Shown: in pieces, positions 21,520 to 24,116 of the stretch
Numbering within the stretch: the first letter of the stretch is position 1
Layout of the letters: every line of letters starts with the position of its first letter
DNA from: an uncultured Pirellulales bacterium
Lineage (GTDB): Bacteria > Planctomycetota > Planctomycetia > Pirellulales > CAYNRE01
Direction of reading: 5' to 3'
Length of the DNA stretch: 24,927 bases
Assembly (NCBI GenBank): GCA_964461275.1
Contig: CAYWTU010000002.1
Location: forward strand, 1 to 24,927
Position numbers and translations under genes: made by a program
Notes under the pieces: generated by a model
Told to the model about the DNA's origin: nothing
The model's database searches: none
Seen by the model: only the letters and a program-made list of their open reading frames with translations

Positions 21520-22908
21520 CTACGGGGACTGTTCGGCCTGCTCTTCAAAGTCAGGCGTCGCGTCGTCCCCTTCCGCTTCCACTGCCAGGCCCAGGTGCAC
21601 CATCCGGCGATAGAGCCGCGGCCGCGATAGTCCCAACGCTCGGGCCGCCTTGGCGCGATTGCCGCGAGCCTTGGTCAACGCCTCTTCGATCAGCGCCCGT
21701 TCGGTTTGCGCTAATGTTTCGACCAGCGAAATGCGCATCGGTTGTGGAGGTCGATGCGTTGCCGCTTGCCGGGCCAACTCGAGTTCCGCTGGCAGATCGC
21801 GCCCTGTGACGTAATGTCCCTCGGCCCGTTGGCAGGCGCCGTGCAACACGCCTTGGAGTTCGGCTACGTCGCCCTGCCATGGGTGCAATGCCAGCCGTTC
21901 CAGCGCTTCGGGCGTGATGCCCGCCAATTGCTTGTCGCCAGCCGCGTTGATGTCTTCGATCAGCGCTTGCACGACCTGCGGCAGGTCGATCAGCCGCTGG
22001 GACAGCGGCGTCAGTTCGATGGGAATCACGCTCAACCGCTGCGCCAGCTCCGCGTCGAACTCGCCACGCGCCGCCATCGCGGTTAGCGGTTGACCGGACG
22101 TTGCGAGTAGGCGCACGCCCGCAGGCGACTGCCACGTGCGTAGATCTCGCTGGGTCACCGGGGAAAGTCGGTCGACGTCGCACACCAACAAGCCGCCGCC
22201 GGTGCGCGCCGCGCGTGCTGCGGCCGCGCGCACATCTTCCGCCGTGGCCGCGACGCTATCGACAGTTATCAGGGTGGACGAGTCGGGTGATGTATCGCCC
22301 GCGGCGATACACCGGGCTACCGACTCGCGCCCGCTGCCCGGCGGCCCCCAAACTAAGACGTTGGCCGATGTCGCCTGTCGCGCAGCCTGCACTTGCTGGC
22401 ATACCCTTTGCGCGGAGGCGCTGGAACCGGCCAGCCGGGCCAAGTCAAATCGACTCCGTAGCCGAGCCCGCCATGACCAGATCGCGGCGTGCAATTGATC
22501 GGAATCGACGACGGGCGAGTCGTCGAGTGCTGCGGCGGGCTTCTCGTCGCCCACCGCCACCAGCAAGCCTCGCCCGATCGCGCCCAGCGAAAGCGTTACG
22601 AATTGGGCAAGGCGCTGCCGCACAATCCCTTGCTCGTCGATCCAGGTCAAATTCCCGGCGGCGATTTGACCGTCGAACGCCTCGGGGGGTGGGCATAGGG
22701 CGGCCGACCAATCGGTGGCGCCCTCCGGTGTCGGTCGGCTGTGGTAGCTGCACCGCAGCGTCAGCAGCCGGTCGAGTTCCCACCCGGTCCACAAGCACAC
22801 GGCGGCGTTGGCCGCGATCAGCCATTGTTCCTCGTCCAGCAGATACAGCGGGCGGTCGGCCGACTCTAGGCGGCGGGCAAAGGCGGATGGCCGGGAACGC
22901 TTCGGCAT
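21520..22908 (-). CDS. PAS + degenerate sigma54-interaction (AAA+) + Fis-HTH transcriptional regulator
   Basis: N-terminal PAS-like region (PLYLLDEEQWLIAANAA), GSSASAQRVCQQV, VLVWGPPGSGRESVAR, VRLLATS, LAQRLSVIPIELTPLSQR, HPWQGDVAEL and C-terminal GNRAKAARALGLSRPRLYRRM. Confidence 0.85.
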   Translation of the reverse strand: MPKRSRPSAFARRLESADRPLYLLDEEQWLIAANAAVCLWTGWELDRLLTLRCSYHSRPTPEGATDWSAALCPPPEAFDGQIAAGNLTWIDEQGIVRQRLAQFVTLSLGAIGRGLLVAVGDEKPAAALDDSPVVDSDQLHAAIWSWRARLRSRFDLARLAGSSASAQRVCQQVQAARQATSANVLVWGPPGSGRESVARCIAAGDTSPDSSTLITVDSVAATAEDVRAAAARAARTGGGLLVCDVDRLSPVTQRDLRTWQSPAGVRLLATSGQPLTAMAARGEFDAELAQRLSVIPIELTPLSQRLIDLPQVVQALIEDINAAGDKQLAGITPEALERLALHPWQGDVAELQGVLHGACQRAEGHYVTGRDLPAELELARQAATHRPPQPMRISLVETLAQTERALIEEALTKARGNRAKAARALGLSRPRLYRRMVHLGLAVEAEGDDATPDFEEQAEQSP

Positions 22909-22961
22909 CGGTGGGTTCGCGAGGCGAGAAAGACAAAAAAATTGGTTAACTTTTCGGCGCT

Positions 22962-22979
22962 ATGTCAGCCGTATGTCAC
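22962..22979 (+). promoter_or_regulatory. Pho-box-like (OmpR/PhoB-type) 7-4-7 direct repeat
   Basis: ATGTCAG-CCGT-ATGTCAC (11-bp period), followed after 10 nt by CATAAG (22990-22995). Confidence 0.35.
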
Positions 22980-23062
22980 ACCTACCGACCATAAGTATAC
23001 AAGCATACCACCGGGCCGGACCGGTGCGACGAAATGCCGAATGGCGCTATTGCCGGTCGGCT

Positions 23063-23085
23063 GGGTACTGGGTCTGGGTACTGGG
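23063..23085 (+). other. G-quadruplex-forming motif within a 13-bp tandem repeat
   Basis: GGG-TACT-GGG-TCT-GGG-TACT-GGG; CTGGGTACTGGG occurs at 23061-23072 and 23074-23085. Confidence 0.45.
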
Positions 23086-23102
23086 CACGGCGTTGGGGGA
23101 GC

Positions 23103-23462
23103 GTCGCCATCCACACCAGGAGGCGACTTTTCCCCGGGGCAGGCCGCGCTGTGCATAGAAACGACCGAAGAACCACTTCCGCGGATTGGGTTCCCGTCGC
23201 TGGGCCTCTGGTACGGCATGGGTGCAGGGGAGGAAAACCAGGAACTGGTAATCTTCGGTCGTCCCTTACCTGGTTGGTTCTCGGCGCAACAGCGCGTTGA
23301 ACAACGCGTCGGCGGTAGCCGACCAATGTGGGCGAAAAACAGGCGGCGGTGAAGTTTCCCTGAACGAGCTCAACCGGCCTTCGGGGTCGCCCAACTCACC
23401 GCCGCCTAGTTTTCCGACTTCCGGCTGAGTTGGCGGGTAACAAGTCGTTGCGATGAAACGAC
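23103..23462 (+). ncRNA. Candidate structured non-coding RNA or leader (multiple long hairpins); family not recognised
   Basis: Hairpins at 23103-23127, 23161-23262 (11-bp perfect outer stem), 23293-23308, 23307-23435 (12-bp perfect core, G-U pairs, internal cUUCGg) and 23444-23462. Strand inferred from the G-U pairs and UUCG loop. Confidence 0.3.
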
Positions 23463-23635
23463 GTCTGGCATCGCCGCAACAGCGCACTACATTCCGCAGG
23501 GGTGAATTCCGCGGGGATGACCGATCCGTTGCCGAACCTTGGCGGTACGCAATTGCCGACACGTCCGCGAGACAGTCGCTGTTCATGCTCGGCAGCAGCC
23601 GTCCGCCCGGCAATCGTCCCCTGCCGCCTCGAACT

Positions 23636-23665
23636 AAAAAATCACGCGTGGCGGTCCACGCCGTG
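23636..23665 (-). terminator. Intrinsic terminator downstream of tRNA-Lys
   Basis: Minus strand CAC-G-GCGTGG-ACCG-CCACGC-GTG-A-TTTTTT, starting 5 nt after the tRNA 3' end. Confidence 0.65.
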
Positions 23666-23670
23666 CGAAG

Positions 23671-23743
<73 letters not shown>

Positions 23744-24116
23744 GCAGGAGCAAGAATCGCCCGCAGCAACCGCGATCCTGCGTCACGCGGCGAAAGCGTC
23801 GGCGCCGTTGCTCTATTGCCATGCGCATTCGACTGCCAAGCACACTCGTCTTCGTCCGCCACGGTGCCGTGCGGAGGAAAGCGATCCAGCGTCATCCCAA
23901 GCTACCATACCCAGCTACGACTCGAAAGGGTCGTGACCTGGCGCGGCATCGCTGGCGGCGCCGAGAAAACGTGCGTCGTGCCATGAACATTGAGCCGGTC
24001 GCCAGGGACAAGCAGTCAAGCGTCGGTCCCCATTAGCCCTGCAGGTGAATGTCCTACGACAGGTGGGAGTCGCGCCCGAGCGGACAGGTTCGCGCGGGCG
24101 GCAGTAGCCGCGCTGG

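Follow-up and report, generated by a model that had tools for sequence, protein, structure and literature searches.

A candidate small-RNA gene with a palindromic-repeat insertion, head-to-head with a bEBP-type regulator gene in Pirellulales

Small RNAs (sRNAs) encoded divergently from the gene of a regulator are known from several bacteria, e.g. the pairs qrr1-luxO in Vibrio and oxyS-oxyR and gcvB-gcvA in E. coli. LuxO is an AAA+/HTH_8 protein of the bEBP type, and regulation of the Qrr/LuxO type combines a sigma-54 promoter of the -24/-12 form (TGGCAC-N5-TTGC) with a bEBP that makes its contact through a GAFTGA motif in the AAA+ domain. 6S RNA, a structured RNA of ~180 nt, is closed by a stem, opens into a large central bubble and carries a further stem at its terminal end. 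Palindromic repeats of the MITE/REP-like kind are represented in bacteria by ERIC/IRU, the Correia elements and REPINs. Regulation by sRNAs in Planctomycetes is almost uncharted; our literature search found no sRNA study for this phylum, and Rfam has no entry for the locus described below.

Here, we analyzed the spacer of ~760 bp (22909-23669) that separates a regulator gene from the gene for tRNA-Lys(UUU) in the window, i.e. the whole stretch of 24,927 nucleotides from an uncultured Pirellulales bacterium. Both genes are on the - strand and tRNA-Lys is terminated on its own strand, hence, in the direction of their transcription, the spacer follows a terminated tRNA and precedes the regulator (Table 1). 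The original prediction described the spacer as devoid of credible open reading frames (ORFs) and as the site of one, possibly large, non-coding RNA with five hairpins (a to e). A Pfam search with every spacer ORF returned no match, in line with the former statement. The "multi-hairpin element" itself is two things, a candidate small RNA gene and a copy of a palindromic repeat inside it. Hairpin b is the repeat; rod d is a conserved, single-copy and syntenic structure with covarying pairs and a bias toward one strand, and it is preceded by a conserved upstream block.

Table 1. Features of the spacer between the regulator gene and tRNA-Lys, with the flanking genes (positions in the window)
Feature	Position	Strand	Evidence or remark
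Regulator gene, 462 aa	21520-22908	-	Pfam PF14532 1e-16, PF02954 5e-12, PF25601 1e-11; divergent neighbour of the candidate RNA gene
Promoter/operator-like block TGTCA-gccgta-TGTCAC-N12-TAAGTA	22963-22997	+	same architecture at 11/11 loci
Variable 5' part of the putative transcript	22998-23155	+	single-copy in the MAG; includes hairpin a (23103-23127)
Hairpin a, GTCGCC/GGCGAC	23103-23108 / 23122-23127		within the variable 5' part
Hairpin b, diverged copy of the ~105-nt dispersed palindromic repeat (MITE/REP-like)	23156-23266	no strand	nhmmer, core profile 2-103, 59 bits
Hairpin b, arms	23161-23171 / 23252-23262		11/11 complementary
Hairpins c (23293-23308) and c' (23308-23323, GUCGGC-GGUA-GCCGAC)	23292-23323	+	structures kept within the family to which the window genome belongs
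Hairpin c, arms CGCGTT/AACGCG	23293-23298 / 23303-23308		
Rod d, conserved RNA core	23341-23407	+	eleven homologues, one per genome, two families
Rod d, arms	23334-23352 / 23396-23414		19 nt, 89%
U-rich tail AGUUUUCCGACUUCC	23408-23423	+	with rod d, an intrinsic-terminator-like 3' end
Hairpin e, GTCGTT/AACGAC	23445-23450 / 23457-23462	no strand	in the fold; single-copy; downstream of the putative 3' end
Intrinsic terminator of tRNA-Lys	23632-23661	-	terminator scan: stem GCGTGG/CCACGC, then GTGATTTTTT
tRNA-Lys(UUU)	23670-23743	-	ARAGORN; Rfam tRNA, 77.9 bits

Pfam analysis of the regulator reveals a PAS-like N-terminus, a degenerate AAA+ domain of the sigma-54-interaction type and a Fis-type HTH_8 domain. 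The match to PF00158 is confined to profile positions 2-61, the bEBP families of NCBIfam match over the C-terminal half of the protein alone and all score far under their cut-off, and no GAFTGA motif was found by inspection of the translated sequence. Judging from these features, the protein is probably a sigma-54-independent member of a bEBP-type family, equipped with a PAS-like N-terminus. We also observed a Walker-A-like segment, GPPGSGRES, and found that within the AAA+ domain just the second half is matched by the bEBP families. When metagenomes were scanned for proteins close to the regulator, just two distant matches (27-28% identity) and no near-identical contig were obtained.

All five predicted hairpins were found, and the 360-nt stretch that contains them (23103-23462) outperforms its dinucleotide shuffles on both strands, as had been anticipated: its + strand folds with -162.5 kcal/mol vs -142.2 +/- 5.2 kcal/mol for the shuffles (z -3.89, 0/100 as good) and its - strand with a z of -2.64. 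For rod d folded alone the corresponding values are -4.29 (+) and -3.14 (-). Comparison with the homologous loci (see below) nonetheless redraws the element. The conserved rod comprises 67 nt, and its ~130-nt version is not supported: the homologues lack the proposed outer helices AGCCG/CGGCT and CGTCGGC/GTTGGCG, the 3' partners of which are located beyond the U-rich tail, and the conserved alternative to these helices is hairpin c' with its GGUA loop. What had been read as an apical cUUCGg tetraloop is really the 3' arm of the inner stem CCCUGAA/UUCGGGG, and the UUCG is not kept in the homologues. By sequence comparison hairpins a and e are not conserved (e has no counterpart in G001) and b is an insertion, which leaves no single large RNA over all five hairpins. 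The suggested likeness to 6S RNA (RF00013) fails as well, as cmscan gave no match to it or to any other family for the rod, either in 22800-23800 at E<=10 or at five homologous loci at E<=1; tRNA-Lys is the sole Rfam match in this region and, at the gathering threshold, in the whole window, and the short rod apparently doubles as a terminator. Among the options originally offered (structured sRNA, regulatory leader or MITE remnant), that of an sRNA suits c and d as a conserved, single-copy candidate, and that of a MITE remnant suits b, which in terms of genome copy number is a repeat (at least 38 copies) in an otherwise single-copy spacer.

The sequence of hairpin b identifies it as a copy of a MITE/REP-like repeat inserted within the variable 5' part. 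A search of the window assembly (MAG G000, 5.08 Mb, 1022 contigs, 73% complete) with the spacer gave three further matches, all of them to the hairpin-b segment with ~70% identity; the remaining parts (a, d, head and tail) are single-copy in the MAG, and so is the segment with c, c' and rod d (23292-23423). Of the 43 matches that iterated nhmmer searches produced in the MAG, 38 reach E<1e-6 with the core profile, on which the window copy scores 59 bits vs 113 bits for the best copy. The family shares with MITEs its short length (~105 nt), its multiple copies (38) and its terminal inverted repeats, the two ends pairing as an outer stem of ~23 bp. Its subfamilies differ by matching changes in both arms, e.g. 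C-G to U-A in 6/21 copies. According to a crude codon-usage gene finder, 32/38 copies are located outside genes, in both orientations, and the other six overlap just unconfirmed 5' extensions of stop-to-stop frames. Seven copies are found at contig ends (C456, C573, C44, C904, C18, C271 and C308), hence the true copy number is above 38, and the repeat probably contributes to the fragmentation of the MAG assembly. The ends read TA..TA in many copies, with variation and without a clear target duplication. Within the 73%-complete MAG we found no pair of arms around a long insert and no autonomous partner, and Rfam searches with near-consensus copies returned no match.

The repeat family is present in 58/201 sampled genomes of the order, corresponding to 40/119 genera, and in some other genomes of the order its arms (1-28 and 78-103) and core (41-70) occur separately. 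This modularity can be seen by comparison with the copies at L012:16-120 and L016:19-124 of the window genome, and was observed in G004, G014, G103 and others: some genomes have arms of ~28 nt, 100% identical to those of the MAG, around a different core, and others possess the core alone (CCCCTCACC..GGGAGAGG) with 91-97% identity. Translation of the repeat yields recurring spurious peptides (..ERPKNNFRRMNSPHLAS.., ..SLRERLGEGNS..), e.g. in L002:699-2363, L003:1433-1813 and L004:1404-2537, and such strings could be annotated as conserved hypothetical proteins or as false N-terminal extensions. The repeat thus matters for annotation, since it both spawns spurious short ORFs and breaks assemblies.

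The first search for relatives of the spacer gave a 33-nt match to the rod, with 89% identity, on contig C430 of genome G001. The same contig encodes an orthologue of the regulator (39% identity), ~225 nt from the rod match and in the same relative orientation as in the window. Both loci have in common the rod and two small hairpins that precede it (c and c'), the latter differing in sequence between the two genomes with the pairing kept (e.g. CGCG to CGAA with matching changes in the partner); one of the pairs in G001 is U-G, possible on the + strand alone. With a covariance model (R1) built on c, c' and d, we found a full-length homologue in G002, the remaining one of the three genomes of the window family, where it again precedes the regulator, and additionally a homologue in G094, which belongs to a second family. 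A model of the rod only (R2) gave seven further candidates in the family of G094, 5-6 of which were accepted, and the eleventh member, in G121, was found through synteny. The rod homologues thus come from 11 genomes of two families, with one copy each. Searches of 143 further genomes of the order, of the 11 genomes of family f8 and of 150 genomes from across the phylum gave no convincing match, and the regulator orthologue loci of six other families have neither the block nor the rod. Several weak model matches were rejected, two inside long ORFs (L065 and L066) and two coding-like, with no regulator and no block (L192 and L193). A degenerate rod pattern run over genome contigs proved unspecific, and among the matches listed (GC-rich, from other phyla) none scored with R2.

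The RNA unit is placed head-to-head with the orthologous regulator in 8/11 genomes, in which 290-500 nt separate the regulator from the rod upstream of it. Genus g27 is different: its three genomes encode the regulator orthologue elsewhere, and the RNA unit, including the block, adjoins other genes; its persistence apart from the regulator indicates that the RNA unit is an independent gene. The regulator proteins of the two families are only 35-40% identical, and the rod holds 30-nt stretches at ~90% identity. What lies downstream of the RNA differs among the homologous loci: the gene convergent with it is nuoN-like in G001 (L010:1-1309) and in G145 (L061:2-1096), vs tRNA-Lys in the window.

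In the rod, the basal stem (GGCGGCGG/CCGCCGCC) is continued by a second-tier stem, an internal loop that is asymmetric with 5-7 / 9-11 nt (5' AGU.., 3' (U)UCGCCCAA), the inner stem CCCU../..AGGG and a tip that varies. Near invariance is seen on the 3' side of the internal loop (UUCGCCCAA; GUCGCCCAA in the window), and the same is true of the basal stem GGCRGCGG/CCGCYGCC, the inner CCCU/AGGG stem and the part ACCGGCCU of the tip. In a model-guided alignment of 10 members, which is fitted to the model, 95.6% of the cells are paired and 6 pairs are changed on both sides; 0/500 shuffles reach this, and in slid controls only 35-57% are paired. Since the alignment leans to the model and the members are related, the covariation is supportive rather than conclusive, and eleven members from only two families offer few independent changes. 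The paired cells include 14 G-U vs 0 A-C on the + strand of the window. The rod hence displays the compensatory changes and the strand-specific G-U pairs by which structured RNAs are recognized, and the homologues provide comparative support both for the anticipated covariation and for the preference for the + strand. Indels of 1 nt and 4 nt within the conserved block argue against a coding function. The U-rich run that follows the rod comprises U7 in G094 and G167, U6 in G001 and U5 in G145, G156 and G121; G002, G026 and G065 have a weak run, and the window has UUUU only, owing to which its tail is not called by a simple terminator scan.

Comparison of the 420 nt upstream of each rod revealed a block with the consensus TGWCA-N5-6-TGWCAY-N10-14-TAnnn(T/A), in the same orientation at 11/11 loci, the pattern having been derived from the very loci in which it was counted. 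In the window this block starts 55 nt from the start codon of the regulator and is oriented toward rod d. Across the 5.08-Mb MAG we counted no more than 7 sites with the TGWCA-N5-6-TGWCA dyad, which is not above permuted controls and is therefore a locus-specific signal and not a general type of promoter. A sigma-70 reading was rejected, with the hexamer 10-14 nt from the second half-site and 21-22 nt from the first, and so was a sigma-54 reading, as the half-sites are TGWCA and all 11 loci have no GG...GC at the required spacing. The -10-like hexamer of the window, TAAGTA, with its 12-nt spacer, is off the commonest form. Because the block fits neither sigma factor, it is a promoter only in the sense that we infer one, and it may consist of an activator/operator dyad followed by a -10-like hexamer.

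Conservation among the homologous loci is restricted to the block and the 3' domain. The spacing of block and rod varies between 15 nt in G094 and 344 nt in the window, the latter being unusually long because of the inserted repeat copy (~111 nt). In G094, 15 nt separate the hexamer TAGTCT from the rod, which leaves no room for an ORF and points to the rod as the functional core. The variable 5' part of the window cannot be convincingly aligned with that of G001 beyond a short TTTTCC..CCxGGGGCA stretch. Hairpin a in this part is followed by UUUU and could stop transcripts early. A short tandem repeat with a 12-nt unit (GGGTACTGGGTC / TGGGTACTGGGC) is found at ~23062-23087, and two places in G010 match 23061-23092, spanning the tandem repeat, with 91-93% identity. 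In G009, of family f8, the anti-regulator strand carries a block TGACA-TATAGA-TGACAC-N10-TAGATT upstream of the orthologous regulator gene (L048:3046-3290); ~200 nt past it there is a strong, different terminator hairpin (GCCGCCTCGC..GCGAGGCGG) with T6, and a GGTTCGCCACA stretch occurs in between. This unit from block to terminator may represent the same RNA in a diverged form, missed by our models.

We propose that the spacer contains a small-RNA gene on the + strand, comprising the block, a variable 5' part, hairpins c and c' and the rod-terminator, and that its variable part carries an old insertion of the dispersed palindromic repeat; we assign to this reading a probability of about 0.7. 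Transcription, as predicted from the sequence, would be driven by the conserved block and would proceed through the poorly conserved 5' part, here lengthened by the ~111-nt repeat copy, into the conserved 3' domain made of c, c' and rod d with its U-rich tail. The rod would then act both as the transcription terminator, at which the RNA ends, and as the carrier of the invariant internal-loop sequence. The neighbouring HTH_8 regulator would bind the TGWCA dyad and control the RNA, which in turn would act in trans on mRNAs or on a protein via the conserved loop.

Alternatively, rod d could be a cis element of the regulator locus, either a terminator or insulator against upstream transcription or a part of a long - strand leader of the regulator mRNA. 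Such a role would agree with its position upstream of the regulator in eight genomes, and the A-run before and the T-run after the rod in the window would make bidirectional termination possible. On the other hand, all 14 wobble pairs work just on the anti-regulator strand, which also bears the U-rich tails (in G001 and G094 the regulator strand lacks such a tail), tRNA-Lys already possesses its own terminator, the g27 genomes keep rod and block without an adjacent regulator, and a plain terminator needs no invariant sequence in its internal loop. We therefore regard a cis element as unlikely.

A still smaller chance is left to the view that the whole region is a non-functional GC-rich spacer, in which the hairpins are decayed repeats or chance structures. 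It would account for hairpin b, which is indeed a repeat copy, and for hairpins a and e, which have no homologues, and high-GC DNA generally folds well; it would not account for a single-copy rod that is syntenic across two families and exhibits 30-nt stretches of ~90% identity and compensatory changes. Least credible of all appears a small protein, encoded e.g. by the 115-aa ORF on the - strand (23266-23613) or by ORFs on the + strand, since the frames that are open on both strands lack Pfam matches, the conserved block has suffered the 1-nt and 4-nt indels between genomes, the + strand ORFs traverse the repeat insertion, and in G094, with 15 nt from the TAnnnT hexamer of the block to the rod, no + strand ORF fits upstream.

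Going beyond the proposed small-RNA gene, one could tentatively envisage that planctomycetes possess a dedicated regulator-sRNA module, not described before, made up of the rod RNA and the PAS-like/AAA+/HTH_8 regulator. In this module the regulator would bind the TGWCA dyad and drive the RNA, and the invariant loop UUCGCCCAA would be recognized by a protein or by target mRNAs. We consider this conceivable, with the odds somewhat against it; if true, the RNA would be among the first comparatively supported trans-acting sRNAs of the phylum. The locus offers a concrete candidate whose core and strand are defined, which has a likely control region and a likely regulator, and which could be tested in cultured relatives; it also suggests that a widespread and apparently uncatalogued palindromic repeat of the order can sit inside an sRNA gene.

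Among described repeats, hairpin b resembles ERIC/IRU, the Correia elements and REPINs in that it belongs to a family of long imperfect palindromes with tens of intergenic copies in both orientations. REP/REPIN sequences are defined by a palindrome of 20-40 bp, a GTAG or CGTC tag and an association with RAYT (PMC3733652); we rejected this identity for the repeat, which with ~105 nt is much longer than REP and whose consensus has no GTAG/CGTC tag (PMC3733652). The Rhodopirellula-1 motif, a repeated planctomycete hairpin conserved around its base, variable at its tip and not deposited in Rfam (PMC2864571), was rejected as well: its alignment of ~82 nt, AACNA..GAU-GNAC-CGG-AG...CGGUGAUC..CGUU (Weinberg et al. 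2010, PMC2864571, supplementary file 155), compared with the repeat by eye and without a model, has only the AAC...GUU ends in common with it, and it shares nothing with rod d. With 6S RNA (RF00013), rod d has in common a rod shape with an internal loop, from which it departs by its length of 67 nt, the lack of a large central bubble and its U-rich, terminator-like end.

As to the divergent pairs, Qrr, OxyS and GcvB exhibit no sequence similarity to the candidate RNA according to Rfam, and the conserved sequence is located here inside the terminator rod and not in a 5' single-stranded seed. Unlike in Qrr, the block of the window has TGWCA half-sites and no sigma-54 promoter TGGCAC-N5-TTGC; unlike LuxO, the regulator of the window lacks both GAFTGA (by inspection) and a receiver domain; and the control of the candidate RNA by its neighbour is putative, in contrast to that in qrr1-luxO. 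The arrangement itself is nevertheless that of qrr1-luxO, oxyS-oxyR and gcvB-gcvA, i.e. an RNA gene with a terminator hairpin placed head-to-head with the gene of a transcription factor, with a shared control region between them, and our tentative guess for the candidate RNA is an sRNA that is controlled by the regulator, in an arrangement like that of qrr1-luxO.
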